A stretch of 64,000 nt of DNA from a virus, in IMG/VR virus record IMGVR_UViG_3300042923_000502, positions 1 through 64,000 of that record. One strand, given 5' to 3'. The notes under the pieces are model-generated. The model was not told where the DNA came from. It saw only the letters and a program-made list of their open reading frames with translations, and did not search any database. Positions 18,732 through 50,921 of the stretch are shown here, in pieces; position 1 is the stretch's first letter, and each line of letters opens with the position of its first letter. Both the position numbers and the translations under genes were made by a program.

Positions 18732-18745
18732 GTTAATAAAAACAA

Positions 18746-19111: not shown

Positions 19112-19163
19112 GGTAGTTTTATTTATTTAACGTGCATGATCTACCAAACAAACACATCATACA

Positions 19164-19963: not shown

Positions 19964-19985
19964 GCTGTTTTTTAATTTATTTTTT

Positions 19986-32509: not shown

Positions 32510-33786
32510 GATAGATCACCTCATAGTGTTTTGTTATTTTATTTGGTGCTTGATCCTATTTTTATCATACCGACTATTAGATCATAAGTCAACATTATTG
32601 GTAAACTTTTTGGTATTTTCTATAGTAGTGTACCAATATTTTCGCAGGGGTTCAGAAATGGGGTATAGGTCTATATATGAAAACACAGGAATTAGTTGAA
32701 ACATAGCCCCCCTTCTAGGTGTGATGAAATAGATGGGATTGTGTGATTTTATCTTTGAGACGTAGACATATGATTAAATGTGGAATTTGTGTGAGAGGTG
32801 TGTTTTACGACAACGCTGAAAATTGAGATATAGATAAGCGATACTGTATATAATCGGCTGACATTTGCGTTAACGAGTTTTTCCTTCTGCGTTAACAAAT
32901 TAGACGTCAGAGTGTGATGATGGTGATTAGGTTGGGTGTAGAAATAGGGTTGATAATGTGTTGAAAATATTGCGACTGCGCGGAGTTGCAGTGCCCTGGG
33001 GGTATTGGAAATTAAAACCATCTTTTCCGGTTTTTACTAACCCCGCCTATGTCGCGGAATTAGCGTTCTACGACACGGAACCGGATTCACCTCATAAATG
33101 GTAAAAAGTGGGTAAAAATATGAATTTAGTGATATTATGAATAATTGGTAAATATTTACTTTTTTAAAAAATTTTTGATTTTTAAAAATTTCCCTTTTTT
33201 TGGCATCGTAGAAACGCGCGACCATAACACTAACCGCACGATGTAAGACACACCTATCACCTTAGCGACCATCTAGCGACCTCTATCCATCCAATCATCC
33301 ATCCAATCATCCACATAATCGCATACAACTATATTCAATCCTATCTTATGACCTCACATATTATCACCTCACATACAATCATATAAAACTATATTGCGCA
33401 CAATATAATAGCTTAACACTATATTGCACTATATTCTCTAGTTCTAAATATATCCAATATTCACCTATTAACCTACAATCTAATATCATCCTATCTAGTA
33501 TCATACTATTCAATTGCAAACAATATAATTTAACCCTATATAATGCAATCCTATCTAATAGCACACATTTAAATAGTTAACCTTTATATTAATCACTATT
33601 CTATCATGTAAAACTATATAGCTTCTCACTATATCATACAAAACTATATTGTACGCAATTTAATTCTATAATATATAATTGCATATCATTAATATAAATG
33701 TTAACTAATTGTATCCCAATAAATAGCCTACAATACTAACATACTAACATACTATACTAACATTATGCTAACATATGAATAAAAAG

Positions 33787-33803
33787 TTATCCACATATCC
33801 ACA
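33787..33803 (+). promoter_or_regulatory. DnaA box plus an adjacent near-box
   Basis: TTATCCACA followed by (A)TATCCACA. Confidence 0.5.
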
Positions 33804-34205
33804 CACGTAAAAACGTGCATACATTGCATACAATCTAATTTTATCCTATTCAATATCATGAAATATAATTGTAATCAATAATATAGTAATCAATATGTTA
33901 GTGATCATGATATATTCTCCTTTCAAATAAATGTAAATATATACTAAATAATGCAATAGTATACTATATCCATAATATACCAATATGCCATTATATACCA
34001 TATGATATTGTCATTATGATATGATTTAAATGTTATTATCTATATGTTAATATCTACACGATATTATTAATATGTATATATCAATATCCAATTATATCCA
34101 ATATATAAAAGTCAATAGGGAACACATGTTGCCCATTCTAAGCCCTTAAATCAATTGGAATGACCTAGTGTATGTAAGTAAGTTTATACATCGCTTAGAA
34201 ACGAT

Positions 34206-35230
34206 AGAAAGCGCTTTCTTGGGAAATAAGTTGATTTGACGCCATTTGCAAACGCTTACATTTTAAAAAAGAGCGATTATTTCCCAAAACGCATGAATAA
34301 ATATGCATAAAAGTAGCATATGTAATCGCTTACATGCATACTTATTCATCCATACACACAAATGAGTGATAAAATGAGGATAAATCGCACATATCTAATA
34401 AATAGATGAATTATCATTTTCCAATCTAAATATGATATAGATTCAAAATCACTGATTGAAAACGCTTTCATTATACATATATATCCATATTAGTAATATA
34501 AAGTGTTATCTGACAAATAATGTTTAAATGGATATATATGTAAGCAAAACATACCCATAATGACTTACATTGTCTAGGGAATAGAGAATCATAAAAACGT
34601 TGTCACAAGGATTGTAAGCCGCTTTAATCACGTTCAATAGTGCATCTAATACCCATGTTAGGGTACACATATTGAACGTCTTAGAAGGGCAAATAAAGCG
34701 CTTACATTTCAATCGTATGTAAGCCATAAAAAATGTAAATATTTTCAAAATGAATATTTATGCATAAAAATGTTTCGGATGCATACCCGAAAATTTTTCC
34801 GAACATTAAAAAAGTCTTATGTATCAAGGCTTTGTGGCACTTACTTTCTGATAGTGACATTCATAAGCAAAAGTTATCACTATGATAAAAAAATCAAAAG
34901 TCCTTATGTAGCAAGGGATTGCGTTATTTTTACCAATATATGTATATACATTAAAAAATCTAATTGTGTCAATATTGTGAACGAATTTTAAAATTTATTG
35001 AAATACGATATTGACATTTTAGAATCATTTGATCCATCATTTTTAAAACACGAACATTATGACCGATTATGGCACAATATATAGTCAAAATCCGAACATT
35101 AAGCCATTTTAGCCTTTTTAGCTTAAAAAATGAACTATAATGCGAACATAAATTCTCATATTGACACCTAAAATATGGATATTGTAAGCGCTTACTTTCT
35201 ACTAAAAATTGTCAATTGTAAACGCTTACA
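34206..35230. promoter_or_regulatory. Six cre (CcpA/LacI-type) operator-like sites
   Basis: 34206 AGAAAGCGCTTTCT, 34247 TGCAAACGCTTACA, 34321 TGTAATCGCTTACA, 34457 TGAAAACGCTTTCA, 35183 TGTAAGCGCTTACT, 35217 TGTAAACGCTTACA (weaker site at 34693). Confidence 0.65.
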
Positions 35231-35304
35231 TGCAAAATAATACGAACATATGGGAACATAATGTGTACATTTTGTGAAAACGGGCTTTTCAATGCTTTAT
35301 ACAT

Positions 35305-35333
35305 TTGCATACATTCCTATTACTTTGTAATAT
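35305..35333 (+). promoter_or_regulatory. Putative promoter of the long rightward operon
   Basis: TTGCAT-17-TAATAT; base composition turns purine-rich immediately after. Confidence 0.5.
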
Positions 35334-35668
35334 GGACATATCAACACGGCAACACGGCAACGAGAGCAACGAACGAACAACCCAACATTAAAAGAGGTTG
35401 AGCGTAGCAAGTGCGGACGACGGAAGCTACCCACACGCGAATAAGTGAGCAAAAGTAAGTCGCTAACTTATGGTAAGTGTGAGATAAAACGAATCAAAAA
35501 TGCTCACAAGGCTTGTACTTAGCGCAATGCCTAATACATGCTAAGGTGAAGTAATCACGGTTTAATGGGACTAGAAAGGGGAATGCAACCCAATAAGGGA
35601 TGTATGAGGAAAACAAGGTTTTGCTAAGTCTCACCTATCCTCACTAATACATGTGATGCAAAAAGATG

Positions 35669-35682
35669 GTTCTTTGAAAACT
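35669..35682 (+). promoter_or_regulatory. rrn-type boxA antitermination element
   Basis: GTTCTTTGAAAACT, matching the Bacillus rRNA leader boxA, within a ~800-nt untranslated leader. Confidence 0.7.
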
Positions 35683-36132
35683 TAAAAGGTTTATGCCATA
35701 CCCAAAAAGGCATACATTGTATGAATTTAATCTCTAGTCTAATCGAATGGTTAAGACAATGAGGTAAGAAAATTTCTAGTAATAGTGAAGCGAATTGTCC
35801 AATGGAGACAATGAGCGCACATGAGCGGAAAAGCGTAACGCATTGCATACGTGAAGTGTTCATAAACTAGGAAAAGATTATTGCCTTATATGTATGAGAA
35901 TCTTAGACGAATTGGTTAACATTTATGTTAGCCAAGTGCGATTAAATAGCGTGTCAACGTTGGTCATACAATGTAAAAATCATCCTTTAATCATCCTAAA
36001 GGCGTTGCCTAAGATGCTATGGAGTACATATGTATTGTGTAGCATCTTGGACAACGTTGTAAGCAACTTACAAATAGTAGGTTACTTACAACGTTGTACA
36101 TACAACGAATAAAAAAATGGAGTGATTAAATT

Positions 36133-36792
36133 ATGCACCTTCCACAAATTAAAGTACCCGATATGAAAACGGTTATCAATGTTCCGATTCTTTTGTCCAC
36201 TAAAGAATTTCCGATTTTGTCGGAATATAACTCTTTCAAGGCTACCGGAGAAGTATTCAAGAATGCCGGAGACAATAGCGCCTATAATCTAGCACCTATT
36301 CACGCATGGGTTAACATTGATCAATTACAAGGTGAAATGGGAGCGGCATCACGGTTAGGTTTTGGTATGTATGATTCCGACTTGGACAAAAAGAACGGGT
36401 TGTATTACACAATGAAGCTAGATGAAAAGGGAGAAGGTCGGCACGTAAACGGCACAATAACATATACTATTGTGGCGGTTATGGTTAAAGGCAAAAAATA
36501 TTCCGTGAAGAAAGATCACAAGTTACCGAACGGAACAACAATTCAAACCAAATTCGAGTTCTCTTACAATGGTAAGAGCGCGAAAAATTCCACACTTTTT
36601 AAGCTTTTGCGCAAGCTCATTGCAAACGGGTTGTTACAATTTGACAAAACAACTCACTTGGAATTGCTTGGAAAAGTTGACAAAGAAAAGAAAGACGAAA
36701 AGCCCGCAAGTGTGGACATTCCGCAAGCCCCAAAAGGTAAGAGACGTAACAAAAGCGCAAGCGCGGAAGAATCAAAAGCCGCAAATGCTTAA
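36133..36792 (+). CDS. First gene of the array; hypothetical, basic C-terminal tail
   Basis: GGAGTG RBS, 219 aa. Confidence 0.85.
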   Translation: MHLPQIKVPDMKTVINVPILLSTKEFPILSEYNSFKATGEVFKNAGDNSAYNLAPIHAWVNIDQLQGEMGAASRLGFGMYDSDLDKKNGLYYTMKLDEKGEGRHVNGTITYTIVAVMVKGKKYSVKKDHKLPNGTTIQTKFEFSYNGKSAKNSTLFKLLRKLIANGLLQFDKTTHLELLGKVDKEKKDEKPASVDIPQAPKGKRRNKSASAEESKAANA

Positions 36793-36887
36793 TTTAAAAT
36801 TTAAAAATGATAGTAGTTAACAATTAGTAACTATGCTAATTGTTAACTATTCTTGATTTTTAAATTAAATGTAAAGGATGGTAAAAA

Positions 36888-36971
36888 ATGGAAATTAAAA
36901 AATGGAAATTAAAAAATGACAAGCCATGCCGCAAATGTGGCAAGCCGGGTTGCCGTTGTTCTTTACTCTAA
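36888..36971 (+). CDS. 27-aa Cys-rich basic micropeptide
   Basis: AAAGGATG RBS; MEIKKWKLKNDKPCRKCGKPGCRCSLL; fills the space between hairpins 1 and 2. Confidence 0.55.
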   Translation: MEIKKWKLKNDKPCRKCGKPGCRCSLL

Positions 36972-37052
36972 TTTTTGTAAGATATGGTATATAACACAAC
37001 TATTGTTATATACCAAATTGTTACAAAAATTTACAAAAAAGGATGATAAAAA

Positions 37053-37328
37053 ATGGAAAAAATTATCAAAATTGGAAATATTGTTATTTATGAGAAACTT
37101 TGTATGATAGATTTTTGGGTTGAATCTTCTATCGGTCGAAAAGATATGACACATAGCGAACTATACAACTTGCTAGTTGATTGCGACCAATGGAAAGTAA
37201 GAGATACAAGCGGCTTCATAACCTTTTGGCATGGAAAAATAGAAGTAACCGCATTTGTTAAGGAACGCGCAACAAGGGCATATTTTAACCCGGAATTAGT
37301 AGAAACAAATGCCGATTTTGCGGTATAA
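37053..37328 (+). CDS. Array hypothetical protein
   Basis: Hairpin + RBS. Confidence 0.8.
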   Translation: MEKIIKIGNIVIYEKLCMIDFWVESSIGRKDMTHSELYNLLVDCDQWKVRDTSGFITFWHGKIEVTAFVKERATRAYFNPELVETNADFAV

Positions 37329-37412
37329 CAATTTTTGGAAGAACTAGCATATAACATTAATTAAGTTATATGCTAACTTGTTTCAAAAATTTAACAAAAG
37401 GATGATAAAAAA

Positions 37413-37796
37413 ATGGAAATAAATCTAAGTTTTAGCGAGTTTCAACAAAAAGCGAGCATTTCCCAATTAATGGAAATTTTCAAAAAATTGGAAGAAAAAC
37501 AAAGTTTTTTAAACTTTCCATTTGAAACAATGAGAATTGAAATAACACTTTCCTTTAATTATTACAATTACATAAAAAAAGGAAAAAAAGTTATATCTAG
37601 TAACATTTCTTTGTTAGTCGATTTGCATCATAGAATAAATAACAATTCTTGGCACATGGATTGGATAAGATTGGATAATATTACATTAACTAGTTCACAA
37701 GTAGAATATTTTAACAATCTTGGCTTTACATTTGAGAATGAAGTTAAACAAGTCGCTAACAATGAAAATAGTCTATCAATAATTGTAAAAGATTGA
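37413..37796 (+). CDS. Array hypothetical protein
   Basis: Hairpin + RBS. Confidence 0.8.
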   Translation: MEINLSFSEFQQKASISQLMEIFKKLEEKQSFLNFPFETMRIEITLSFNYYNYIKKGKKVISSNISLLVDLHHRINNNSWHMDWIRLDNITLTSSQVEYFNNLGFTFENEVKQVANNENSLSIIVKD

Positions 37797-37858
37797 AAAC
37801 ACGAATATTAGTTCGTGTTTTTTCTTGTTTTACAATTAAACTAAAAAGGATGATAAAA

Positions 37859-38350
37859 ATGGAAATTATGAAACAATATGCTAATTTAAAAATTGCTTAT
37901 GAAAGAGCGAAAGAAGAAGATAAAAATAGTATTAAGGATGAATTAAGGACGTTTCTTTATAACAATCCAAGCATATTATTTCCAATGATTGGTAATAAAT
38001 TATGGGAATATATAGGTGACTATGATCACATAAAAGAGGTTTTACAAGGTGAAGAGGAAAGGGACAAAGAAGAGGGAATAAACGAAGGCATGGTCTATTA
38101 TGATGCTACTATCGACTATACCGCAAAAGCTTTAGAAGCGGTTTTACGAATGGTTTTAGAATGGCACATCGAAAGCAATTTTAAATATGTTTCTTTTGGG
38201 CAAACTTACGTGAGCTTTTGGATTTATGCCGAAAAAGAAAATAAAACAAGATTTAACATTGAAACGGATATTTTACACATCATGGAAAATGAAATAAATG
38301 GTAAAAATGATTATGAAATGGTAATTGATGAAAGTGAATATATAGTATAA
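37859..38350 (+). CDS. Array hypothetical acidic protein
   Basis: Start reassigned after hairpin + RBS. Confidence 0.8.
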   Translation: MEIMKQYANLKIAYERAKEEDKNSIKDELRTFLYNNPSILFPMIGNKLWEYIGDYDHIKEVLQGEEERDKEEGINEGMVYYDATIDYTAKALEAVLRMVLEWHIESNFKYVSFGQTYVSFWIYAEKENKTRFNIETDILHIMENEINGKNDYEMVIDESEYIV

Positions 38351-38430
38351 TTTTTGTAAGATAGGCAATATAAGTAAAATTTACTTATATTGCTAATTGT
38401 TACAAAAATTTAAAAAAAGGATGATTGCAC

Positions 38431-39021
38431 ATGAGAGAAGTTAAACCATTTGAAAAAGTCGGAGAAATTAGGAATTCTTATGTAACATACAAATATTACG
38501 ATTATACCCAATATTCTAATCATAAAGATGAAATGTTAAAAAATGGGTATAGAGAAATAAACCAAATGTCATTAGAAGAAAATGACATTTGGTGCAAATT
38601 TGTAGAATACAAGGAAATTCCATTCCATGAAAGAAATTTTTCTAATTTAGATTGGGATAATAACGAAAGTGAATTGCAAGAAATTATGGATACTATGGCA
38701 AGCAATCCGCTTCAATGGGTAATCCCAAGATTTGGAGCAAAAGCGCGGCAAACAATGGGCGAATTATTTAAATACAATTACAAAGTATTTTATGAAGTAT
38801 GCGACTTATTAATAACACCAATTATGGAATCACATGGAGACTATGAAATATTTGGTGAAAATTTATTTAATGTCATTTTGTCAAATGTTAACAAATACGG
38901 TATTTTAGAAAATGACAATTATAAAATGCATCTTTCTAATGAATACGGTGTAACCGTCGAAACCGATTATTATAGAGGTGGTACTTGGGGAAGCTTTACA
39001 ATTGACGAAAGCGGATACTAA
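38431..39021 (+). CDS. Array hypothetical acidic protein
   Basis: Hairpin + RBS. Confidence 0.8.
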   Translation: MREVKPFEKVGEIRNSYVTYKYYDYTQYSNHKDEMLKNGYREINQMSLEENDIWCKFVEYKEIPFHERNFSNLDWDNNESELQEIMDTMASNPLQWVIPRFGAKARQTMGELFKYNYKVFYEVCDLLITPIMESHGDYEIFGENLFNVILSNVNKYGILENDNYKMHLSNEYGVTVETDYYRGGTWGSFTIDESGY

Positions 39022-39108
39022 CAATTTTTGAAAGAAAGAGCATATAACACAAACGGTTATATGCTCCATTGTTTCAAAAATTTAATAAGTAAAAGGAATG
39101 ATTGTAAA

Positions 39109-39372
39109 ATGATGGTAGTAATAGAGAGACAGGAAAGAGTAGAAGTCAAGTCAGTGATTGGTGCAAGATTACGTAAGATGATTAAAAAGTTGCCGCAATA
39201 CATCAAAACTGATATTTTTAAAATGATACATAATACATCAGGTGATTATGCTTGTTACGGTGAGACATATGTTGAACTACATTTCAGCAAGCAATGCCTG
39301 TCAGCAATTACATTGGATGCTATAAATATTGATGATAATACATCAAAACGTTTTACGCTTATCATCGAATAA
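39109..39372 (+). CDS. Array hypothetical protein
   Basis: Start reassigned after hairpin + RBS. Confidence 0.75.
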   Translation: MMVVIERQERVEVKSVIGARLRKMIKKLPQYIKTDIFKMIHNTSGDYACYGETYVELHFSKQCLSAITLDAINIDDNTSKRFTLIIE

Positions 39373-39462
39373 GACATAAAATTTGAAAAGATAGAAAGAT
39401 ACGAATATAAATTCGTATCTTTTAATTGTTTTCAAATTTAACAAAAAAAGGATGATAACACA

Positions 39463-39699
39463 ATGGGAAATAGAGAAGTTATTGCTTGCTGGGGAATTTC
39501 AAATGTTGCGTCATTAAACGTATGGGAAATGAGATCAGATGAAGCAATGTTGGTGGGAATTAATGACGATGAACCTGAGTGGTGCGAAATTGAATTTATA
39601 CCAAATGAAGAATCTTTAAGTGATGATTACGAAACAGTTAATGTAATTAATTTCCATGGAAATATATACCGACTTGACGAATGTATGAGAGTTAGATAA
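39463..39699 (+). CDS. Array hypothetical acidic protein
   Basis: Hairpin + RBS. Confidence 0.8.
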   Translation: MGNREVIACWGISNVASLNVWEMRSDEAMLVGINDDEPEWCEIEFIPNEESLSDDYETVNVINFHGNIYRLDECMRVR

Positions 39700-39801
39700 T
39701 TCAGTGACTCATAGTGCCATCTATACAACTATATATAGATGGTATTATTGATTTACCGAATAACACAAAATCATATAACGCTTGAAAGGATGTATACCAA
39801 C

Positions 39802-40113
39802 ATGAAAACTTATGCAATACATGTAAGAATGAAGCCTATTCAAATTGTAGAAGCTTCTAACCGCGCTGACGCTATTGAAATTATCCGTAAAAAGTTTGTC
39901 AATGCTTTTATTACAAAGGTAGAAAAGACACAGAAAAAAGCGCTTTGGTGTGATCGTATTGTCCTTGTAACGCCTAATAACACAAAGTACAAGCCTTTCA
40001 CAGTTACATATTTTGAATATTGTGACGAGAATGCTTTACAAGTTGCCAGAGACAATGGATATGACAAAATCGGCACAATAGAAATTTTTAATTCGGTTAC
40101 AAATGTCATATAA
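39802..40113 (+). CDS. Array hypothetical protein
   Basis: Start reassigned after hairpin + RBS. Confidence 0.75.
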   Translation: MKTYAIHVRMKPIQIVEASNRADAIEIIRKKFVNAFITKVEKTQKKALWCDRIVLVTPNNTKYKPFTVTYFEYCDENALQVARDNGYDKIGTIEIFNSVTNVI

Positions 40114-40139
40114 AATAACATCATGAAGGAGAATTTCAC

Positions 40140-40346
40140 ATGAAAAAAATCCAAATCAGAAATTTGTTTGATGTTGCCGTTGAAATGAAATTGTCAGCGA
40201 AATATTATGCGGTTATCTTATTTCAACTTAACAAAGAAATGGCAATAAAACTTAGACGGCAATGGATAACCGGACGTATAACACAAATTGAATATAGTGA
40301 CAGATTGGTTGATTCCATTTTAAGAGAAGTACAGTCTATCAGTTAG
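40140..40346 (+). CDS. Array hypothetical protein
   Basis: AAGGAG RBS. Confidence 0.7.
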   Translation: MKKIQIRNLFDVAVEMKLSAKYYAVILFQLNKEMAIKLRRQWITGRITQIEYSDRLVDSILREVQSIS

Positions 40347-40452
40347 TGAATGACAATGACATTAAGCCATAACACGGCTATATATGTAAGGCTTAATGTT
40401 ATTAGTGAGTTACTAACTACAAATTATCAATATATAAAAAGGATGGTTAAAT

Positions 40453-40746
40453 ATGGAAATGAAGAAGAATTCTGATGTGATTAAGGCGTTTCTCATGGGA
40501 TACAAGGAAGGACAGGCAAACAATCTTAGAATTGAAGAAAGAGCAGGAAGAACAGCTTTATTAAACTTTGATACAGTTTTGGCAGAAATTATGGATCACG
40601 GCAAAGATATTCATATTAACAAGAGTAATTACGGCAGAAGCACTACACGAATTCAGAACGAATTGATCCGCAAGGTTGAAGAAGACAAGAGTATCAGAGT
40701 ATTTTACTACTTTGGTATTGACAAGCACAGCAAAATATTGGTTTAA
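40453..40746 (+). CDS. Array hypothetical protein
   Basis: Hairpin + RBS. Confidence 0.8.
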   Translation: MEMKKNSDVIKAFLMGYKEGQANNLRIEERAGRTALLNFDTVLAEIMDHGKDIHINKSNYGRSTTRIQNELIRKVEEDKSIRVFYYFGIDKHSKILV

Positions 40747-41163
40747 GGAGAGAAGACAATGACAAAACGAACTCAGAAAGAATTATTGGAATGGGACTTG
40801 GAAAATGCGCGTGAATCATGGACAAAATCAGAAACTCAAGAACAATCAGCAATGTGGTATTCAGAGATGAAGAAAATTGAATCTCAGATTGATGAAATGG
40901 AGACACAGAAATGACAGAAAAATATTATCAAATACAAGCTGATCTAAGGGAAGCAAATAAAAGCGGAGACTTAAAAAAGATTAAGCGACTCAGAAACAAG
41001 TTAACAAAGTGGCAGATTGCTTATGGAGCGTATGCACCTATAACACAAGAAAATTGCCACAAGTATGATTGATTCAGTGAATGATAGTCCTCTATAACAT
41101 ACAAGTATAGAGGACAATTGATTTATTGAATTACAAATAATATAAAAAAGGATGATAACACGA

Positions 41164-41361
41164 ATGTCAATGACCAAACGAGAGATCAAAAAAGCATCAG
41201 AATTAGTTCCAAACTTCATTAAAGTATTTGAGAACGATGTGCAAGAAGACATTCATACAGACGCAAAAGAAATGACATATGAAGAATTTGAACTGATTTG
41301 CCGATTGCATGAAAAGCTAACACATGCTATAAACTATGTTGACCAGAGTATTTTCAAATAA
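41164..41361 (+). CDS. Array hypothetical protein
   Basis: Hairpin + RBS. Confidence 0.7.
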   Translation: MSMTKREIKKASELVPNFIKVFENDVQEDIHTDAKEMTYEEFELICRLHEKLTHAINYVDQSIFK

Positions 41362-41451
41362 TTCAGTGATTCAAAGTGCGTTCTATAATACATATTATAG
41401 AGCGTATTATTGTTTTACCGAATTACACTAAATTAAAAAGGATGATAACAC

Positions 41452-41739
41452 ATGAGCAAACTTTATAAAGGAAATGTAAAAACATCGGACGTACATTATC
41501 AAGAGGTTATTCTTACAGCACAAAGAAATGGTAATGACATAAACGGAAATAGCAAGTACAAGGTTCAGGTTTGGATGATTGTAAAAGATGATCACAATAT
41601 GGAATCAGGTACTCTATGGAGTCCTGTGGTAAAAGGATATAGAAAAAATAAGTATGACGAATACACATTAGTATCATCTGACCTTGATCATGATGTTACA
41701 CGCTTTATTGAAGCTTTTGAAAAAACGGTTAGAGCTTAA
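41452..41739 (+). CDS. Array hypothetical protein
   Basis: Hairpin + RBS. Confidence 0.8.
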   Translation: MSKLYKGNVKTSDVHYQEVILTAQRNGNDINGNSKYKVQVWMIVKDDHNMESGTLWSPVVKGYRKNKYDEYTLVSSDLDHDVTRFIEAFEKTVRA

Positions 41740-41828
41740 TCAGTGATAAAAAGTGTCTTACATGATCATATTATGTAAGGCATTATTGTATTACTGATTT
41801 TAAATTACAATGAAAAGGATGATATAAC

Positions 41829-42257
41829 ATGACAACAAAACCATTTACAACCAGAGGGCAAATTGTAGCGGTAACACTTGACAACAATGGTAAAGAGCTT
41901 GCAGTAAGTGTATGCATGAATCCAGACAATATCAGCGAAGCCATTTTGGAAGCTTCAAACGGTGATACGCTTATAGTCAAGTGGGAACGTATTACATTTT
42001 GCAGAGACTATAAACCTTTTGAATTGAATCGCCTTAACAAAGGAGATAATGTTCAAGGCAGAGAAGTTTTGAAAGTAAAAAACTTTCCGCATGATCATCA
42101 CTTACAACTTGTTCTGTGCAAGTGGAAAGAGTTCAGATTCGTTGTATGGCAATACAACATAGAATCAGAAGGTTTTAACTTCGGATACTATTACACATCA
42201 ATAGAAGATGCTGAGGAAAAATTTAAAGAACGTATGGAATACTATGACATCAAGTAA
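41829..42257 (+). CDS. Array hypothetical protein
   Basis: Hairpin + RBS. Confidence 0.8.
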   Translation: MTTKPFTTRGQIVAVTLDNNGKELAVSVCMNPDNISEAILEASNGDTLIVKWERITFCRDYKPFELNRLNKGDNVQGREVLKVKNFPHDHHLQLVLCKWKEFRFVVWQYNIESEGFNFGYYYTSIEDAEEKFKERMEYYDIK

Positions 42258-42349
42258 ATTCAGTGATTCAAAATGCCTTATATAAACCATATTATATAAG
42301 GCATCATTGCTTTACTGAATAACATTACATTACAAAAGGATGATAAGTT

Positions 42350-42553
42350 ATGTACAAATATGAAAAAGAACTGATCAAGATTGTGGAGAGTGTAGGTGAT
42401 GGCAGAACTATTGCTGATCTTTCGGAAAAAAGCTTTAGAAACCGCGAATTTGAAAGCTTTGAAGCTCATGAAATTTATGATATTGCAAGAGGTTCCAGTC
42501 ATTTCAGATACGATGAACGGACTCAGAAGGTTTACTTAGTTAAAAATTCATAA
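42350..42553 (+). CDS. Array hypothetical protein
   Basis: Hairpin + RBS. Confidence 0.75.
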   Translation: MYKYEKELIKIVESVGDGRTIADLSEKSFRNREFESFEAHEIYDIARGSSHFRYDERTQKVYLVKNS

Positions 42554-42626
42554 TTCATATGTTGCCTTTTACATATAGTAAAGGGCAAAAATGTATTATG
42601 AATTATATAAGAAAGGATGATATTAA

Positions 42627-43016
42627 ATGTCAGATAGAAAAAAATATAGCTTCAATTATAGCTATGATGAAGTTGTATCGTTTAATCATAAATTGTTGAA
42701 CGACATTTCAGATCCAGAGTATGACTACAAATTGACAACTGACTTCAAAGATGCAATTTATCTTTTGCATGATGCCAAAATGATTTCAGGCGGCAAAGCA
42801 GAAGCAGGTTTTCGGCATATTGATCATCGTATGATTGAATGCACAATGGAGATTGACAGATACAATGACAATTTTTGGGATGAAGTCCATGCCAGATTTA
42901 AAATTGTACGCCTTGTACCAGAAAGTGAATATGCATTGATCAAAAAAGGTCAGGTTTTAACACGCATTCAGGAATATTTAATTAAAGAAAATGGGTATAT
43001 AATAGAAGAATATTAA
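42627..43016 (+). CDS. Array hypothetical protein
   Basis: Hairpin + RBS. Confidence 0.8.
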   Translation: MSDRKKYSFNYSYDEVVSFNHKLLNDISDPEYDYKLTTDFKDAIYLLHDAKMISGGKAEAGFRHIDHRMIECTMEIDRYNDNFWDEVHARFKIVRLVPESEYALIKKGQVLTRIQEYLIKENGYIIEEY

Positions 43017-43034
43017 AAGAGAGGAAGATATAAA

Positions 43035-43241
43035 ATGGCAATGATTCAGTCACACTATGAGATCAACGTTTCACTTAATGGTAGGCACTTATTTGCGACA
43101 GCGGAGAGAAGTTGCGTAACACAGGACGATTTAAATAAGGTATTAGACATATTTGTTGCCAAGTTTCCAAAATCAGAAGGATATAAAATATCTTACTCTC
43201 ACATTAAATGTGAAGGAAGATCAAAGGAAGTCAGAAACTAA
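43035..43241 (+). CDS. Array hypothetical protein
   Basis: GAGG RBS. Confidence 0.75.
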   Translation: MAMIQSHYEINVSLNGRHLFATAERSCVTQDDLNKVLDIFVAKFPKSEGYKISYSHIKCEGRSKEVRN

Positions 43242-43333
43242 TTCGGTCAATGATAGCACCTTGTATAAACATATTATATAAGGTGTAATTGATTCACTGA
43301 ATTAACAAATAAATTAAAAAAGGATGATTAAAT

Positions 43334-43993
43334 ATGTTTATGACAAAACAATATCCGACAGTTTACGAGAAGTTTGGTGATGTCAATCCTATTGAACATG
43401 GCGGAGGTCTTTACACAGAAATTTCCGATGGCGTATTCGATATTATTCATATCGAACCAGATCAAAACAGATGTGATCTTGGTTGGTTTAATGTGGTTCA
43501 AGTTGACACAAACGATTCTTGGATTCAGGAGAAGAAAGAAGGCTTGTTTTCGACTTATGATATGAACGAATCACAGAATAATAGCATCGACTTTGCTCTT
43601 GCCTGCATCGGATATTTTGGAATCGAAAATTTTGGTGGAGATCAAAGTTACGAAATGCTGATTGACAAAAGGGATATTGAAGAGTCATTGAATGAAGTTA
43701 TTACAGAAAACTTTATCCAAGATGATAACACTATCAGATGCAAGGTTATCAATTATTTCGATGTATGGGGCAATCAGAAAGATGGTTATCAAGTTAATAA
43801 CATGTGCAATGAAGGTGAAATCACAGTTCCTAAAGATGCATCCAACAGAGATGTTGTCGATGCATTAAAGAAAATGGGATTCTTCAAAAAACATGTTCGT
43901 ATGAATATGTGTCAGTTTGAAAGTGCATATATCGACGTATGGGTAATTAACGATTCAAAAGGAAAACCTGTTTGTTGCGTTGAGCCACTATAA
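43334..43993 (+). CDS. Array hypothetical protein, probably two domains
   Basis: GDVNPIEHGG N-domain and DVWGNQKDGYQVNN C-domain. Confidence 0.8.
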   Translation: MFMTKQYPTVYEKFGDVNPIEHGGGLYTEISDGVFDIIHIEPDQNRCDLGWFNVVQVDTNDSWIQEKKEGLFSTYDMNESQNNSIDFALACIGYFGIENFGGDQSYEMLIDKRDIEESLNEVITENFIQDDNTIRCKVINYFDVWGNQKDGYQVNNMCNEGEITVPKDASNRDVVDALKKMGFFKKHVRMNMCQFESAYIDVWVINDSKGKPVCCVEPL

Positions 43994-44087
43994 CATTCAG
44001 AACTAAATACTATGTCTTTCTACTCATATAGTAGGAAGACATAAATTGTTTTCTGAATAAAAATAATATTGCAAAGGATGATAAACA

Positions 44088-44303
44088 ATGCGTATAACAC
44101 CCGAATACAGAAACCACTTGAAAGTTGAAGGACATAAAGGCACATGGTATGTTGTCGATGAAACTAATCACAATGACCAACAGGTTTATCTGTTGGAGCA
44201 TGAGAAATACGGTGAAGATGTTGCCTGTCTTATTGTTGACAAGGATTTGAATGTTCTGGTTGACGATGTTTGGAATGGATTCGATGATTTAGAGTATTTG
44301 TAA
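44088..44303 (+). CDS. Array small acidic protein
   Basis: GHKGTWYVVD...LLEHEKYGED...WNGFDDL; hairpin + RBS. Confidence 0.8.
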   Translation: MRITPEYRNHLKVEGHKGTWYVVDETNHNDQQVYLLEHEKYGEDVACLIVDKDLNVLVDDVWNGFDDLEYL

Positions 44304-44579
44304 AATCAAACATCAAAGGAGAATAACAGATGAAATCACTAAAAAGAAGATATTATTGTTCAGCTAAGGACAACAAAGGTCAATTGACACAATTTGAGTT
44401 AGTTGCTGAGAGCAAGAAAGAAGCAGTGCAGAGATGCAAAGATGAATGCAAAAGACTTGATTATGTATTCATGGAAGTAAGCTTATAGCAGGTAGTTTCA
44501 GAATTGATTGTGCCTTACATTACAACATTATATGTAAGGCATTAATGAGTTATTGAAACTCAAGAAAGGATGATAAACA

Positions 44580-44798
44580 GTGATTGTTGGATATTATTGT
44601 CACAAAGAAGACAAGGAATTAACAGGATTAAATGTAATGGTAGTATTGAAACATGATAATGGACAATTAGAAGCGTATTGTCCATCAGAACAACACTTTC
44701 CATTGACAGAAGAATATTTTAATGAATGTGTTAGAATAACAAAAGAGCAATATGTCAATGCCAGCTCGTTGTGGACTCCGGCTGAATACTTAAACTAA
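44580..44798 (+). CDS. Array hypothetical protein
   Basis: Hairpin + RBS. Confidence 0.75.
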   Translation: MIVGYYCHKEDKELTGLNVMVVLKHDNGQLEAYCPSEQHFPLTEEYFNECVRITKEQYVNASSLWTPAEYLN

Positions 44799-44821
44799 AT
44801 TAGAAAAGAGGATGATAACAT

Positions 44822-45238
44822 ATGACAAGTCAAAGAAGTGTTGCTGTAGAAAGATTTGAAAAGTTGGAAGAAATGGGATATTCTCACACGGATATTCTTA
44901 ATTACATTCTTTTCAATTGGATGAACGCTGATGATGCATGTGAAAGCCTTGAAGGATTCGCAGGAGACATGGACTTCTCCTTTGAAGAAGATGAAGCAGA
45001 AGAAGGCACAGAAAATGAAATTGAACCTACCTATGAAGTAGGCGACACCGTAACAATAGCAAGTGACAATGAAAATTATTTTGAATACTTAGGAAAAGAC
45101 CTTACAGTAGCCAAAGTTTCAACAAGTATTGAAGATCATCCTGGTTTTGATGACTCAGTAGGAGAAGCCTTGTATGACCTTGAGACGGAAGATGGCGAAC
45201 CTGTACCATTTTCGGTGTATGAATATGAATTGAATTGA
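44822..45238 (+). CDS. Array highly acidic protein
   Basis: GAGGATG RBS; very D/E-rich. Confidence 0.8.
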   Translation: MTSQRSVAVERFEKLEEMGYSHTDILNYILFNWMNADDACESLEGFAGDMDFSFEEDEAEEGTENEIEPTYEVGDTVTIASDNENYFEYLGKDLTVAKVSTSIEDHPGFDDSVGEALYDLETEDGEPVPFSVYEYELN

Positions 45239-45334
45239 TTCAGAATAATATACTATGCTCTTTACTCTATATATAGTAGAGAGCATAAATACTTTTCTGA
45301 ATAGAAAAGAATAACATTAAAAGGATGATAACAC

Positions 45335-45715
45335 ATGAGAACAACGAAAAAAGAATTTGTAGCTCAGATTCAAGAACATATTGCAAATAGATTGTCGGAA
45401 GATGAAACAACGGTATTGAGCGAACAGCTGCAAAATGTTATGGATGACTTTAAAGATTGGTATAATCCATATGAGAAGAAATTGACACCAAACAGGCATG
45501 ATGCTCTTAAACATTGGCTGTGGGGTCTTCCATCGTCATTATCTCTTGAGTATCAACACTACAATATCAGTAAGATTCTTAAAAAATGGTTTAATGAGTG
45601 TGGGGAAGAATATAAGGAAATTGGAGATGGCAGAAAAGAAGCTGATTTTTATATGAATTTGGTAATACGCGAATTTAACAAAATGTATAACAAGCATTGC
45701 AAGCAAACGAATTAA
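45335..45715 (+). CDS. Array hypothetical protein
   Basis: Hairpin + RBS. Confidence 0.8.
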   Translation: MRTTKKEFVAQIQEHIANRLSEDETTVLSEQLQNVMDDFKDWYNPYEKKLTPNRHDALKHWLWGLPSSLSLEYQHYNISKILKKWFNECGEEYKEIGDGRKEADFYMNLVIREFNKMYNKHCKQTN

Positions 45716-45801
45716 TTCAGAATTTTATTATACCTTTTATATTGCAATATATAAAAGGTATAAATACTTTTCTGAATGGAAAGTAAATTTAACGGATAAG
45801 G

Positions 45802-46155
45802 ATGATCATAATGGCATATACTATGCTTACACCAGAAGTTGTTGAATTTCTCTCAAAAGAGGAATTAAAAGGTAAATTAATGACGTTGCGCATGTCTTCC
45901 GTTGCAGACAAGAGAAATACTATTCAATTGTCGGAAGGATTCATTGAATCTGTAAGAGTAAACGAAGAAACAGAAGTTGAAAGAGAAGGATTCAGCATTC
46001 AATTAATGAACAAAAAAGGAGAATTGTATTATAGACCAGAGTGCTTCTTTGGCACATTTGACAATTTTGAAATTAATTCTTATGAAACATCAACAGTACT
46101 TAGAATTAATTACAAAGATCAAAGCTACTTTATTATTAAGATTTACGGCATATAA
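45802..46155 (+). CDS. Array hypothetical protein (paralog of the next gene)
   Basis: TPEVVEFLS..KGKL..IKIYGI. Confidence 0.8.
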   Translation: MIIMAYTMLTPEVVEFLSKEELKGKLMTLRMSSVADKRNTIQLSEGFIESVRVNEETEVEREGFSIQLMNKKGELYYRPECFFGTFDNFEINSYETSTVLRINYKDQSYFIIKIYGI

Positions 46156-46173
46156 CACATTAAAAAAAGGGGA

Positions 46174-46494
46174 ATGAAAATGACAGAAAACATAATAACA
46201 CCAGAGATAATTGACTTACTCTCTAGTAAAGATGTAAATGACAAATTAATTACAGTGAGTACATCAACGAATAGATCAAATAGTGTAATTTCAGGATTTG
46301 TTGATAGTATCAAGGTAATTGATGGTAAGGAAATAGTAATTCAGATTGGTGATAAAAATGAAAATCTGATGGGTGAACCGCTTATCTTTAAAGATTTTGA
46401 CAAGATATTTATAGGTACTGATAGCATATGTACCAAACTAAGACTTCAACATTTAAATGGTGATTATTCATTTATTCAAATTTACGGAGTATAA
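46174..46494 (+). CDS. Array hypothetical protein (paralog of the previous gene)
   Basis: TPEIIDLLS..NDKL..IQIYGV. Confidence 0.8.
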   Translation: MKMTENIITPEIIDLLSSKDVNDKLITVSTSTNRSNSVISGFVDSIKVIDGKEIVIQIGDKNENLMGEPLIFKDFDKIFIGTDSICTKLRLQHLNGDYSFIQIYGV

Positions 46495-46582
46495 TTCAGA
46501 ATAACATATGATGCCTTTTACTTGTAATAAGTAGAAGGCATAAATGCTCTTCTGAGCAACAAATAACACCAAGAAAAGGGGA

Positions 46583-46771
46583 ATGATAACCATGACAAAA
46601 GTAGCGACATCAGGAAAAATTAAGACACGAAAAGAGCATACTGTGTCGGGACGTTCCAACGTCACAAACGAAGTATACAAAAGAATATTTACAAGCTATT
46701 CAGAAATGAACAAGTGGGCTGAAAAGAATGATCTTGTAATATTCAACGTTGTTACAAAGGTTATCAAATAA
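46583..46771 (+). CDS. Array hypothetical protein
   Basis: Hairpin + RBS. Confidence 0.65.
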   Translation: MITMTKVATSGKIKTRKEHTVSGRSNVTNEVYKRIFTSYSEMNKWAEKNDLVIFNVVTKVIK

Positions 46772-46792
46772 CAGATAAAAGGAGATTGAGCA

Positions 46793-47188
46793 ATGACAAA
46801 ACACATTAAATTGAACATTAAGGTAATGCTTAATACGAATTTCGGAAAAGTTCAGATTGGTGAAATTTCATTAAATCCAAGTGTAATGGGAAGCATATCA
46901 GAAGAGTATATTGTAGAGCAATGGTTCAAAAATGTTAATGTAAATGTTCAGCAAATTGCTAGAGTATGGACACAGGCGGAAAACCGCTCTTATCTGTATG
47001 GAGTTCATTATCACAATAACGGAAAAGAACTATATGAATTCTATTATGTTTCAAGAGGTATGCTGTATGATGACCATGGATATTTAGAAGAAATTGAAGT
47101 AGGCGAATTTTTAGGAGACTTGACAACACTCGATCAGGCAACGGCTTTGGATGCGTTTATGGTGAAGATCAAAGAAGAATTGAGTTAA
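46793..47188 (+). CDS. Array hypothetical protein
   Basis: AAGGAG RBS. Confidence 0.8.
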   Translation: MTKHIKLNIKVMLNTNFGKVQIGEISLNPSVMGSISEEYIVEQWFKNVNVNVQQIARVWTQAENRSYLYGVHYHNNGKELYEFYYVSRGMLYDDHGYLEEIEVGEFLGDLTTLDQATALDAFMVKIKEELS

Positions 47189-47265
47189 TTCAGAATAATA
47201 TACTATGTCTTTTACTTCTAATAGTAGAAGACATAAATACTCTTCTGAGTAATCATAACAAAGGA

Positions 47266-47691
47266 GTGGTAACAATGAAATACAAAACGATTGGAACAGT
47301 TAGACTTGCAAAGCGTCTTAAAAACCTTAGCAAAGGTGATGTAATCCTTGACACAGCATTTAACAAATACGCTAACGGTGTAACAAGCTACAGCTTATGC
47401 ATTTGGGAAGTAATCAAGAAACATGTTGATATTAGCCTTATACACAAAGCAGAGATGACTTTCACGCAAAAAGATTGGTATACGTTGACTCTATCTCATA
47501 AAGACGGATACACTTTTAAATTACGCGGTATGTCATCTGGTTATTATGGCGAAGGATCAAGAGCAACAGAAAAAGTTTTGCTTGATTGTGGATTCAGTCA
47601 AAGTGCTATTGATATTATCTTTATCAAAAATAACGAAAATTGGATCATTCGCAAGTTTGCAACAAAGGGAACTAGAGTTCACATCAGATAA
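47266..47691 (+). CDS. Array hypothetical protein
   Basis: GMSSGYYGEGSR motif; hairpin + RBS. Confidence 0.8.
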   Translation: MVTMKYKTIGTVRLAKRLKNLSKGDVILDTAFNKYANGVTSYSLCIWEVIKKHVDISLIHKAEMTFTQKDWYTLTLSHKDGYTFKLRGMSSGYYGEGSRATEKVLLDCGFSQSAIDIIFIKNNENWIIRKFATKGTRVHIR

Positions 47692-47888
47692 AGGAGTGAA
47701 GATACATGATAAAACAATACGTTTACCATAACACAACAACAGATGAAGTCGTAGGGTTCAATGCTAATAGCCTACACCAATCAAAGATCAGAATGAGAAG
47801 GCTATCCAGAGTTCATTTCATCGGTAGCAAGGCAAGTGATTGGAAGTTTGTTAAAACAGATAAAAAAATGAGACACTGAAAATTATAC

Positions 47889-47916
47889 TTGCATAGTCGG
47901 TAAAATGTGGTATAAT
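47889..47916 (+). promoter_or_regulatory. sigma-A-type promoter
   Basis: TTGCAT...TGTGG-TATAAT extended -10. Confidence 0.65.
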
Positions 47917-48032
47917 AGTAGTTGGCACAAATAAAAGATAAAACATCAGATTGGAGCTTATGCCTTTCACGCAACATATAGTGAAGGGTATAAATGATTC
48001 ACTGATTTAACACAAAGAGAGGATGACAACAA

Positions 48033-48356
48033 ATGGAAGTTTTAGTTATGCCAAACGGTCAAACTGAAATTATCTCCGATGAAAGAGATTTGATTGAATT
48101 TATTGGCAGAGTAATGGGTTATGAAGTAAAGATAATGGTTGAAGAAATTTCCAAGAGAGCAGATAAAGCCGCTATTTTGGCTGATTCGGATTTTAAATCA
48201 TATGAAATGCAAGTTGAAGAAAATCATGATGCCTTTCAGGAATTAGCTGGATTGGTCAATAGGGTTTATGAAGAATTGGATAAGGAAAGAATGAATAAAA
48301 AGAAAATAACATCTATCATTGACAGGATGGATCATGTAGTAAGCAATCAAATCTAA
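48033..48356 (+). CDS. Hypothetical helical protein
   Basis: Hairpin + RBS. Confidence 0.8.
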   Translation: MEVLVMPNGQTEIISDERDLIEFIGRVMGYEVKIMVEEISKRADKAAILADSDFKSYEMQVEENHDAFQELAGLVNRVYEELDKERMNKKKITSIIDRMDHVVSNQI

Positions 48357-48368
48357 GGAGTGAATTAG

Positions 48369-48662
48369 GTGGAAGCAATAAACAAATACGAAATAAGCGC
48401 ACACAATTTCACGGAATTCATCTACATGTATACAGTGGACGATCATTTGTATGACTGTGGCGAAGAAATGTATAGTATGTATGAGCTATCTACAGAAATT
48501 AAAGTGCTGGAGTATATAGAGGTACACGGATATAATGGATACGCATGTACTTTCAGCAAAGAAGTTGATGCTATCTTTAGTGATTACATTGCATTCTTAG
48601 AAGGGAAAAACAATAATTATTTTAGCATAGAATTTCCAGAAAATTTAAAAAATAAGGAGTGA
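48369..48662 (+). CDS. Hypothetical acidic protein
   Basis: AAGGAG RBS. Confidence 0.75.
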   Translation: MEAINKYEISAHNFTEFIYMYTVDDHLYDCGEEMYSMYELSTEIKVLEYIEVHGYNGYACTFSKEVDAIFSDYIAFLEGKNNNYFSIEFPENLKNKE

Positions 48663-48668
48663 TTATTC

Positions 48669-50921
48669 ATGACAATTCAGTTGCCATTAGACTTTCACAA
48701 ACCACTTTGGGATAAGTTCAATACACAGCAACGTAAGGCGGTTAAACAGATTGATGGAGCGGTGCAAATTTGTGCCGTTGCCGGAAGTGGTAAGACAACG
48801 GTTATTGTACATCGTACAGAACACATGATCAATGATTTGAAGATTGATCCATCTTCTATTGCTTTAATGACATTTACATCTAAGGCAGCGCAAGAAATGG
48901 GTGAGCGACTTCAAAAGCTTATTAGTAAGAAGGATTATGATAACATGTTTTGTGGAACCTCACACAGCTTTGGTTATCGTGTACTTGCAAAGGAGTACAA
49001 GGATATTAATCATCCTCTTGCATCTTTCACACGTAAGGATTTTAAAGACCCAGGATTGCTTACAGGTACTTCATTGAAGTACTTTAGCACATCGGTTAAG
49101 GAAAAGATTCTTCAATTGCCGCTACAAAATGATATTATTAATGAAATTGAAGGAATTGCTGAAAATCAATTCTTGAAAGTTGTTAGTTTATGCAAAAACG
49201 CTGACCTTGATCCTCAACAATATGAGGACATGTGCGTAATGGAAGACCCAAGCGCAAACAGATGGGCTTATATCCATTATTACAAGATGTATGAAAAGAT
49301 GAAAGATGAACGCAGATGCATTGACTTTGATGATATGCTGTTTAAAGCGGTAAGGTTATTCAGATCACATCCAGCTATTTTGAAGAAATATCAAAAGCAA
49401 TACAAGTATGTTGTTATTGACGAAACACAAGACAATAACCCTACACAATATGCACTTGCAGAAATGATTGCCAAGCCAGAAAATAATGTGTATGTTGTTG
49501 GTGACGATGATCAAAGCTTGTATACGTTCCGTGGGGCAGAACCAAATCTTTTCATTGACTTCTGTGAAAAATATGAGAATGCAATTCAAATACCGCTTGA
49601 AGACAATTATCGTAGCAAGCCTGAAATACTAAAAGTTGCAAATTTGCTGATTAACCATAACACCAAACGAATTAAGAAGCATCTTGTGGCTCACAGCAAA
49701 TCAGTTGACAAGTCAGTTTTTTATTCTCATTTCTTGGATGAAATTAAGGAAGCGGAATTTGTTGCAAATGAAATTGACAATATTTGCAATGATCCCGATG
49801 CTGATTTTATGGATAGTATACCTTACAATCGTGTGTTTATCATCTATCGTACAAACGCACAGAATAAGGAAATGGAAGATGCCTTGATTACAAAGGGCAT
49901 ACCATATGTCATTCATGGCGGCATGAGCTTTTATGAGCGCAGAGAAGTGAAGGATATACTAGCATACTTGAGACTTGTGAATGACACTGACGATAACGAT
50001 GCATTCAAGCGGGTATACAATGTTCCTAGTCGCTATCTTGGTAAAGCTTTTCTTAATAAGATTGATGATAATGGAAAAAGTTCATTGTGGGACAGATGTT
50101 CGTCAGTTGTATTGACAAAGAAAGAGCAAGATTCCGTCAATTCATTTAAAGCCATTGTTAATACAATGACTGAACTTAAAAACAAAGGCGGCAAGATTGA
50201 TGAATTGATTGATTGCCTAATGAAAAGCGGATATGAAGAACATCTTAAAAAGGATAACAAAGACGAATCAGAAGATGAAGACAATGAGATTGTTGAAAAG
50301 CTCAAATTCTTTGTTAGAAGATTTGATAACATCGAAAACCTTATCAAGTATGTTGAAGTGATGTCAGGTAAGCGTAAGGAAGATGTGAACGGCGTTCAAC
50401 TTATGACGGTTCATAGAAGCAAAGGACTTGAAGCTCATGCTGTGTTTGGTATTGGTATCAATGAAGGATTGATGCCACATATTAGAAGCAAAGAAGCTTT
50501 TGACTCAGGTGAAAATCCATTTGCCATTGAAGAAGAAAGAAGACTTGCATATGTATTGGTAACACGTGCAGAGACATTTGCATATTTATCCTCAACATCT
50601 TCATTCAATGGTAAGTCATCAGAAAGATCACGCTTCATCGAAGAAATGGAGTTAGTGAAGGTTGATAAAGACGAAGAAGATGTTCAGGAAATTGAAGAAG
50701 AAAAGTATACACCGCCAGTTCGTGAGGTTTACGGATATGCTACAAAGGAAGAATACAAAGGAATAGGTCAACTTCCAGATATTCCTTATGTAACATATGT
50801 AGAAATTAAACCGGAACCAAAGCAAGAACAGAAAACTGAATCTTCTCCACCAGATGGATTCATCTATATTGATGATCCACTTATTGGAAGGATACTTAAA
50901 CCTATTGCAAAAGGCAAATAG
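48669..50921 (+). CDS. pcrA: UvrD/PcrA-family SF1A helicase
   Basis: AVAGSGKT, TFTSKAAQEM, IDETQD, VGDDDQSLYTFRGA, NYRS, YRTNAQ, TVHRSKGLE, EERRLAYVLVTRA. Confidence 0.93.
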   Translation: MTIQLPLDFHKPLWDKFNTQQRKAVKQIDGAVQICAVAGSGKTTVIVHRTEHMINDLKIDPSSIALMTFTSKAAQEMGERLQKLISKKDYDNMFCGTSHSFGYRVLAKEYKDINHPLASFTRKDFKDPGLLTGTSLKYFSTSVKEKILQLPLQNDIINEIEGIAENQFLKVVSLCKNADLDPQQYEDMCVMEDPSANRWAYIHYYKMYEKMKDERRCIDFDDMLFKAVRLFRSHPAILKKYQKQYKYVVIDETQDNNPTQYALAEMIAKPENNVYVVGDDDQSLYTFRGAEPNLFIDFCEKYENAIQIPLEDNYRSKPEILKVANLLINHNTKRIKKHLVAHSKSVDKSVFYSHFLDEIKEAEFVANEIDNICNDPDADFMDSIPYNRVFIIYRTNAQNKEMEDALITKGIPYVIHGGMSFYERREVKDILAYLRLVNDTDDNDAFKRVYNVPSRYLGKAFLNKIDDNGKSSLWDRCSSVVLTKKEQDSVNSFKAIVNTMTELKNKGGKIDELIDCLMKSGYEEHLKKDNKDESEDEDNEIVEKLKFFVRRFDNIENLIKYVEVMSGKRKEDVNGVQLMTVHRSKGLEAHAVFGIGINEGLMPHIRSKEAFDSGENPFAIEEERRLAYVLVTRAETFAYLSSTSSFNGKSSERSRFIEEMELVKVDKDEEDVQEIEEEKYTPPVREVYGYATKEEYKGIGQLPDIPYVTYVEIKPEPKQEQKTESSPPDGFIYIDDPLIGRILKPIAKGK

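Follow-up and report, generated by a model that had tools for sequence, protein, structure and literature searches.

RNase III cleavage sites have been reported in the host-takeover module of phage SPO1 (Stewart 1998, cited in PMC3896407). In this module, located in the terminal redundancy, we found at least six hairpins, each with an outer stem after the stop codon, then an asymmetric loop with TAG opposite CATGG, a variable inner stem and finally a polypurine ribosome-binding site (RBS). The SP82 substrates contain internal loops and receive a single cut on the downstream side, the T7 stems with their bubble being alike, and in T7 the single downstream cut leaves a protective hairpin at the 3′ end (PMC1935012). 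Mutations in the RBS led to a shorter half-life of SP82 messenger RNA (Hue 1995, cited in PMC7509114). The PeSLs of T4-type phages are repeated units of ~100 bp that extend from stop codon to start codon in a hyperplastic ORFan region (Arbiol et al., 2010, PMC2839356; Comeau et al., 2014, PMC4122927); their stem-loops terminate transcription. Here we describe an array of hairpins in the window, i.e., the first 64 kb (64,000 nucleotides, nt) of the single-contig virus record IMGVR_UViG_3300042923_000502 (170,562 bp in total). In it, 33 small genes encoding 27–219 aa, all on the plus strand between 36133 and 48662 (open reading frame [ORF] list with a check of starts and RBSs), are punctuated by 22 single hairpins of 58–74 nt within 36796–48006. 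The hairpin structures are real and under selection, and this selection works on the sense strand; it is quite probable that they are RNA-level processing or stabiliser signals, a role that fits every computational test that was run.

The hairpins were detected by folding every intergenic gap of at least 40 nt; what is shown here by computation is their structure and position, the covariation and strand bias, their restriction to the array and their conservation in relatives. An initial annotation of this DNA had described about 30 small genes with 22 hairpins that start at or just after the upstream stop codon, and both statements held: 22 gene junctions carry a hairpin whereas 11 of the 33 junctions carry none, and in 20 of the 22 copies the hairpin begins between −7 and +9 nt relative to the final base of the upstream stop codon (median 0). 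The two positional exceptions are one hairpin that begins 16 nt inside the upstream gene and one that sits after a promoter. The 3′ end of the hairpin is separated from the next start codon by 20–40 nt (median 27), and every hairpin is followed by an A-rich single-stranded spacer and by AAGGATGAT or a close variant as RBS, which itself stands outside the hairpin. All hairpins are placed between a stop codon and an RBS, and we use the term linker for the hairpin plus RBS, from stop codon to start codon. The proposed layout was also recovered by folding: an outer stem of 8–11 bp, an asymmetric internal loop or three weak pairs, an inner stem of 10–15 bp and an AT-rich loop, ahead of the A-run and the RBS. 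The asymmetric loop or weak pairs are predicted between both helices in all copies, the loop letters being GATA opposite AATTG or TAATATAC opposite AAATAC, and a single bulged G recurs on the 3′ arm of the sense strand. Stacked together, the two stems would give about two turns of double strand (at least 20 bp), as in the RNase III signals of phage early messages. Minimum free energies (MFE) range from −20.7 to −27.5 kcal/mol, with z-scores of −5.3 to −9.2 for the 20 hairpins tested, none of the 200 dinucleotide shuffles of each folding as well.

The elements had been taken as a single class, but their outer stems separate them into three sequence families: the AATTTTTGTAA-type at 36.9–39.4 kb (family 1), the ATTCAGTGA-type at 39.7–43.3 kb and again at 47945 (family 2), and the ATTCAGAA-type at 44.0–47.25 kb (family 3). 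All copies are on the plus strand and are numbered e01 to e22; bit scores refer to a covariance model (R1) trained on family 2 and family 3 copies from this phage and from one relative. The series opens with e01 (36796–36868), a family 1-like copy with a long inner stem (MFE −27.5 kcal/mol, z −9.2), followed by the family 1 copies e02 (36970–37031; outer stem AATTTTTGTAA / TTACAAAAATT, MFE −22.0 kcal/mol, z −5.5), e03 (37330–37391; MFE −20.7 kcal/mol, z −6.9), e05 (38349–38410; z −8.5), e06 (39023–39084; z −8.6) and e07 (39379–39439). Among them stands a variant, e04 (37780–37838; z −7.1), which begins 16 nt before the upstream stop codon and whose inner stem runs into TTTTTT; from these letters it looks like a true terminator or attenuator. 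Family 2 comprises e08 (39699–39761; ATTCAGTGA / TTACYGAAT, 67.6 bits, z −7.0), e10 (41072–41131), e11 (41361–41423), e12 (41738–41799), e13 (42258–42320; 76.1 bits) and e15 (43241–43302), and two divergent copies that were outside the training set are found in the same part of the array, e09 (40343–40416; 33.5 bits, E 0.0014, z −5.6) and e14 (42546–42603; 39.4 bits, z −6.0). Family 3 is represented by e16 (43995–44058; ATTCAGAA / TTCTGAAT), e18 (45238–45302), e19 (45715–45777), e20 (46494–46558; 55.7 bits) and e21 (47188–47250), with e17 (44496–44558) lying between e16 and e18. The last copy, e22 (47945–48006; 50.7 bits), is family 2-like and occupies a 5′ leader downstream of the promoter at 47889, with no upstream ORF.

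Covariation of the stems, proposed in the initial annotation, was borne out with the covariance model. In an alignment of 29 plus-strand copies from four phages to R1, a procedure in which fitting to the model itself favours pairing, 89.4% of cells pair and double changes occur at 15 of 20 pairs; for the inner helix the figures are 98.4% and 10 of 11 pairs. The covariation score of this alignment was 0.486 compared to 0.235 in shuffles (0 of 500 as high), and it fell to at most 0.165 when the pairing partners were slid. When positional orthologues were compared independently in pairs, 21 changes were compensatory and another 21 went through G-U. MAFFT, applied to 21 copies together, did not bring the outer stems into register, and RNAalifold retained the inner helix alone; the covariance-model alignment was used instead. 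Family 1 retains the fold yet lacks the TTCAG/CTGAA outer-stem letters of families 2 and 3, which indicates that the fold rather than the outer-stem sequence is selected. The claim that the sense RNA folds better, with a G-T bias on that strand, also stood: the sense strand is the better folder in 19 of the 22 hairpins (mean −23.3 vs −18.9 kcal/mol, Wilcoxon p = 1.6e-4), and contains 46 G-U pairs, the antisense only 15. In hairpin-free windows of the same array the sense advantage is only ~1.1 kcal/mol, and base composition therefore accounts for at most a quarter of the strand bias.

All elements point the same way, and within the 170-kb genome they occur in a single 11-kb array only. Matches to R1 across the whole genome fall only at 39.7–48.0 kb, including the two divergent copies, and none was found in 305 kb of unrelated metagenome loci used as a negative control. 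A fold scan of the genome in 66-nt windows gave 113 strong single hairpins, 21 of them in the 11-kb array; the strong hairpins inspected outside it were mainly GC-rich stems with T-runs (ordinary terminators) or lay within coding sequence. Rfam models at the gathering threshold found only transfer RNAs (tRNAs) in the window and no ribozyme, the elements matching no family, and a permissive Rfam scan of 34800–48700 gave only chance microRNA-like matches far below threshold.

The same hairpins are present at the same place in G001, an IMG/VR contig of 166,838 bp whose helicase (encoded next to the array) is 73% identical, and the Logan contigs L010 (helicase 74%) and L011 (58%) carry them as well; in relatives, too, R1 matches fall in this array. 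Linkers are often better conserved than the genes. Those of e07 and e10 are 85 and 90% identical to linkers in G001, the latter with two compensatory pairs. Further away, in the cultured relative CP-51, the genes that precede the helicase gene are packed tightly, and linkers of this kind are absent there. In L012 (helicase 54%) nearly every gap of a small-gene array (1200–9900) holds a different repeated linker, whose parts are a hairpin richer in GC, a conserved GTGTTGCGG/GTGTCGCG box, ACTAAA and AAAGGATGGATGA; TTCCACGTGGAA palindromes are frequent. Comparison of the array with 50,697 phage records (megablast, blastn) gave no match, and an IMG/VR pattern scan for family 2 linkers led to no phage beyond the relative that was already known. 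When metagenome contigs were scanned for the family 3 linker pattern, 40 single matches appeared, none of which was confirmed by R1, and these were dismissed as chance.

Promoters are scarce in the array, as had been claimed for the part before 47889. There are 78 promoter-like sites compared to 92 expected, none of which recurs in the linkers, and the sole clear internal promoter is a sigma-A-type sequence on the plus strand at 47889–47916 (TTGCAT, 16-nt spacer, TGg-TATAAT), which is kept in relatives (93% conserved in G001 and present in L010). A promoter using the conserved ATTG of the 3′ loop (TTGATT and the like as −35) was considered and rejected because no −10 recurs and the start site would fall inside the RBS. 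In the relatives' contigs L001 (9091–9156) and L010 (3185–3250) the conserved TTGCAT/TGgTATAAT promoter is immediately preceded by an extra conserved hairpin, of another type, which has no counterpart at the equivalent spot of the window.

Comparison with the SP82/SPO1 sites shows a common architecture without common letters. The gene directly after the array (48669–50921) encodes a UvrD-type helicase (Pfam) that is 43–45% identical to those of the Bacillus phages CP-51, Shanette and SPO1, which makes this phage a distant SPO1-like (Herelleviridae-type) virus and places the two sets of sites in the same viral lineage. In both cases the sites lie between small early genes, begin at the stop codon and combine an outer stem, an asymmetric internal loop, a covarying inner stem and a strong polypurine RBS. 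On the other hand, there is no sequence similarity, the stems are AT-rich here and GC-rich in SPO1, and 22 copies of three families occupy a promoter-poor 11-kb array whereas SPO1 has about six among many promoters. The SP82/SPO1 sites are reported to be cleaved, whereas the present hairpins are known from sequence and predicted fold; the likeness to SPO1 is one of layout, and the SPO1 hairpins compared are candidates for the mapped RNase III sites. The T7 early signals (R0.3, R0.5, R1, R1.1 and R1.3) are likewise intercistronic two-tier hairpins with an internal bubble on one long early transcript, and T7 R1.1 has a 4/5-nt asymmetric loop, comparable to the GATA/AATTG of this array. T7 differs in phage family and host phylum, has five sites instead of 22 and shows no sequence relation.

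The sense-strand bias, the compensatory changes, the lack of a promoter, the lack of a terminator tail in 21 of the 22 hairpins and the resemblance to the SPO1 host-takeover layout are the bases for assigning a processing or stabiliser role. More specifically, we lean slightly toward sense-RNA signals that punctuate a long early transcript, and host RNase III is the enzyme that we consider most likely; beyond the computed properties, we infer that the array is transcribed as one unit and that its messages are cut, as well as the enzyme and the stabilisation. One long polycistronic early transcript would initiate before position 36133, and the promoter at 47889 would add a second start. Each linker would offer a two-tier hairpin of ~22–26 bp from the stop codon on, then an A-rich spacer and a strong polypurine RBS, and host RNase III would cut it once, on the 3′ side of the internal loop. 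The upstream message would then keep a long hairpin at its end as a block to 3′ exonucleases, and the downstream message would start a few tens of nt before a strong Shine-Dalgarno sequence, where bound ribosomes could protect the new 5′ end. The outcome would be units of one to three genes with stability and translation independent of their neighbours. Use of the conserved linkers as homologous patches for ORF exchange among related phages is likely a side effect.

Several observations weigh against this RNase III processing model. A search for a phage-encoded RNase III or double-stranded RNA-binding domain protein found none, and the host enzyme therefore has to be assumed. No particular sequence could be assigned as the promoter upstream of the array. 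R1 detected no sequence similarity to the SPO1 hairpins (no match in SPO1 1–14000, nor in CP-51), and no Rfam family could be assigned. Additionally, hairpins are gained or lost without gene change between relatives, since G001 has one between the homologues of array genes g9 and g10 that is missing here and lacks e16 at the same junction, and no single copy is therefore indispensable. Finally, RNase Y, or no cleavage at all, would fit the anatomy equally well.

This last point leads to the alternatives that keep the hairpins at the RNA level. They could be uncut barriers to 3′ exonucleases, folding insulators between cistrons, or guides for RNase Y acting in the A-rich spacer, which we regard as unlikely while giving it real weight: the evidence from structure, covariation and strand bias applies equally, an A-rich single-stranded spacer follows every hairpin, and e22, placed in a 5′ leader without upstream ORF, would suit an insulator or 5′ stabiliser. 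However, a two-tier helix of ~22–26 bp with an asymmetric loop and conserved GATA / AATTG exceeds what a barrier needs and resembles RNase III substrates. Weak, factor-dependent terminators or attenuators that give an expression gradient along the array are hardly probable. A simple scan does flag nine hairpins as terminator-like on account of the many T residues in their 3′ loop and arm (ATTGTTTT, ATACTTTTC), e04 combines a canonical stem with a T-run, and the PeSL stem-loops provide a precedent for termination. Nevertheless, the statement of the initial annotation that there are no U-tracts holds for the 21 copies other than e04, whose T6 run is terminator-like: elsewhere the T-runs are interrupted, at most 4 nt long, 4–6 nt past an AT-rich stem and predicted to be paired with the 5′ arm, and only e04 has a GC-rich stem running directly into a U-tract, the form taken by the clear terminators of this genome (GC-rich stems with T6–8 directly after). 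Moreover, in the absence of linker promoters for restart, 21 serial terminators would silence the distal genes.

At the DNA level, the evidence concerns gene turnover, which is high: homologues in the G001 array exist for only ~15 of the 33 genes. The main role of the linkers could be that of PeSL-like recombination scaffolds which let co-infecting relatives swap ORFs, as PeSLs are described as doing in T4-type phages (PMC2839356), the RNA structure being secondary. At e17 and e18 the nucleotide homology to G001 (93 and 84%) runs from the first hairpin base to the next start codon and the flanking genes are unrelated, and G001 has an extra hairpin, RBS and 94-aa ORF that fit precisely into the space from the g19 homologue's stop codon to the hairpin that follows. 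As with PeSLs, some gene replacements and one insertion are bounded by linkers. These cases support part of the earlier view that each gene is a hairpin-RBS-ORF cassette; against it stand the 11 hairpin-less junctions, the gains and losses of hairpins without gene change and the tally of synteny breaks, 11 of 13 informative hairpin junctions compared to 8 of 9 informative hairpin-less ones. Gene flux is not concentrated at linkers. In G001 compared to L010 (87–97% identity), one indel falls between a plain stop codon and a hairpin edge, and another, of two genes, has no hairpin at either edge. Unlike PeSLs, the linkers carry no sigma-70 promoter, mostly lack a terminator tail and share exact runs of at most 20 nt within the genome, and a role in double-stranded DNA leaves the G-U asymmetry and the compensatory changes unexplained. 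Such a main role is improbable. It is similarly improbable that the linkers are also active recombination sites at which hairpin-RBS-ORF units or bare ORFs are mobilised between co-infecting phages, perhaps as small circles; exchange would then be short-homology or site-specific, at the stop-codon/hairpin edge and the RBS/start edge, and the array would serve a large lytic Firmicute phage as a gene-capture platform that has no promoters and needs no integrase. Selfish or neutral palindromic repeats (resembling repetitive extragenic palindromes, REP, or miniature inverted-repeat transposable elements, MITE) spread in intergenic DNA would account for a multi-copy family with copies gained and lost between relatives, but strict co-orientation, confinement to one array, a position always between stop codon and RBS, and compensatory changes that maintain pairing across four phages make this very improbable. 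The suggestion that the hairpins are attC-like single-strand sites for the tyrosine recombinase at 28255–29334, the array being an integron-like cassette platform, failed the checks applied here and is extremely improbable. Structure-conserved, sequence-divergent imperfect hairpins between promoter-less, co-oriented small ORFans are indeed shared with integrons, a bulged G recurs on the 3′ arm, and the recombinase is kept in G001. However, none of the three families has RYYYAAC / GTTRRRY (R″/R′) cores, the strand that folds better and bears the bulged G is the top (sense) strand, opposite to the preference of attC, and breakpoints at both linker edges leave no single crossover point. A linker that persists while both neighbours change travels with neither gene, there is no adjacent integron integrase, attI or Pc, and the recombinase lies 7.5 kb away and scores 38.6 bits compared to the 220-bit cut-off of the best Xer/integron model.

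That Xer-like recombinase is the only tyrosine recombinase and is close to a tubulin/FtsZ-family gene (25982–27106), both being conserved in G001. The two could, we presume, form a plasmid-style partition and dimer-resolution (maintenance) pair, which would be unexpected in an SPO1-like lytic phage. The G+C content is ~33%, and ~20 tRNA genes of the window are found on the minus strand in two clusters (7616–9695 and 16708–20059). The 20 largest array proteins were compared with PHROG, where 16 have no match and four match families of unknown function. Two adjacent paralogues, 45811–46155 and 46180–46494 (29% identity, E 9e-15), have no hairpin between them and therefore appear to be a tandem duplication inside one processing unit. 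A 27-aa ORF (36888–36971) has ATGGAAATTAAAAA twice at its start, a direct duplication of 15 nt, and its product closes with the Cys-rich tail CRKCGKPGCRC; it has no homologue in the relative.

Upstream of the array, ~3 kb (33000–36130) are mostly non-coding and contain repeated GTAAGCGCTTAC-like palindromes, CGAACAT repeats and several promoter-like sites (34998–35040); this region may be a genome end, an origin or a leader. A 32-kcal hairpin (36001–36066) lies just upstream of the first array gene. On the plus strand of the leader, 35979–35998 consists of ATCATCCT twice in tandem, the reverse complement of the array RBS core and the only exact ATCATCCTT of the genome; it was dropped as a regulatory lead because it is not conserved in G001. 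This part of the genome is also poor in CAG/CTG. A zone of 4.28 kb (34848–39130, no strand assigned) has none compared to ~57–73 expected, the biggest such gap in the genome; it spans the array leader and the family 1 hairpins and ends within the seventh array gene. Over 6.1 kb (32996–39130) there are just three CAG/CTG sites, the genome mean being 13.4 per kb. One possible reason for the gap is that DNA which enters first or is expressed first avoids a host nuclease.

The device itself is known from T7 and SP82/SPO1, and what is new here is the sequence family and its unusual copy number. The linkers provide 22 covarying natural substrates of three sequence families for defining recognition by the RNase III, or another enzyme, of Firmicutes, and they caution that anatomy alone is insufficient for calling such arrays integron-like. 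If they are processing sites, an early transcript of ~12 kb would be cut into roughly 22 separately stable messages, and we know of no denser natural array of such sites in a Gram-positive phage. The array would then parallel, in nature, the RNA-processing "insulators" set between cistrons in synthetic biology, and it would explain how a fast-turning-over ORFan block takes up genes while the expression of their neighbours is left undisturbed.

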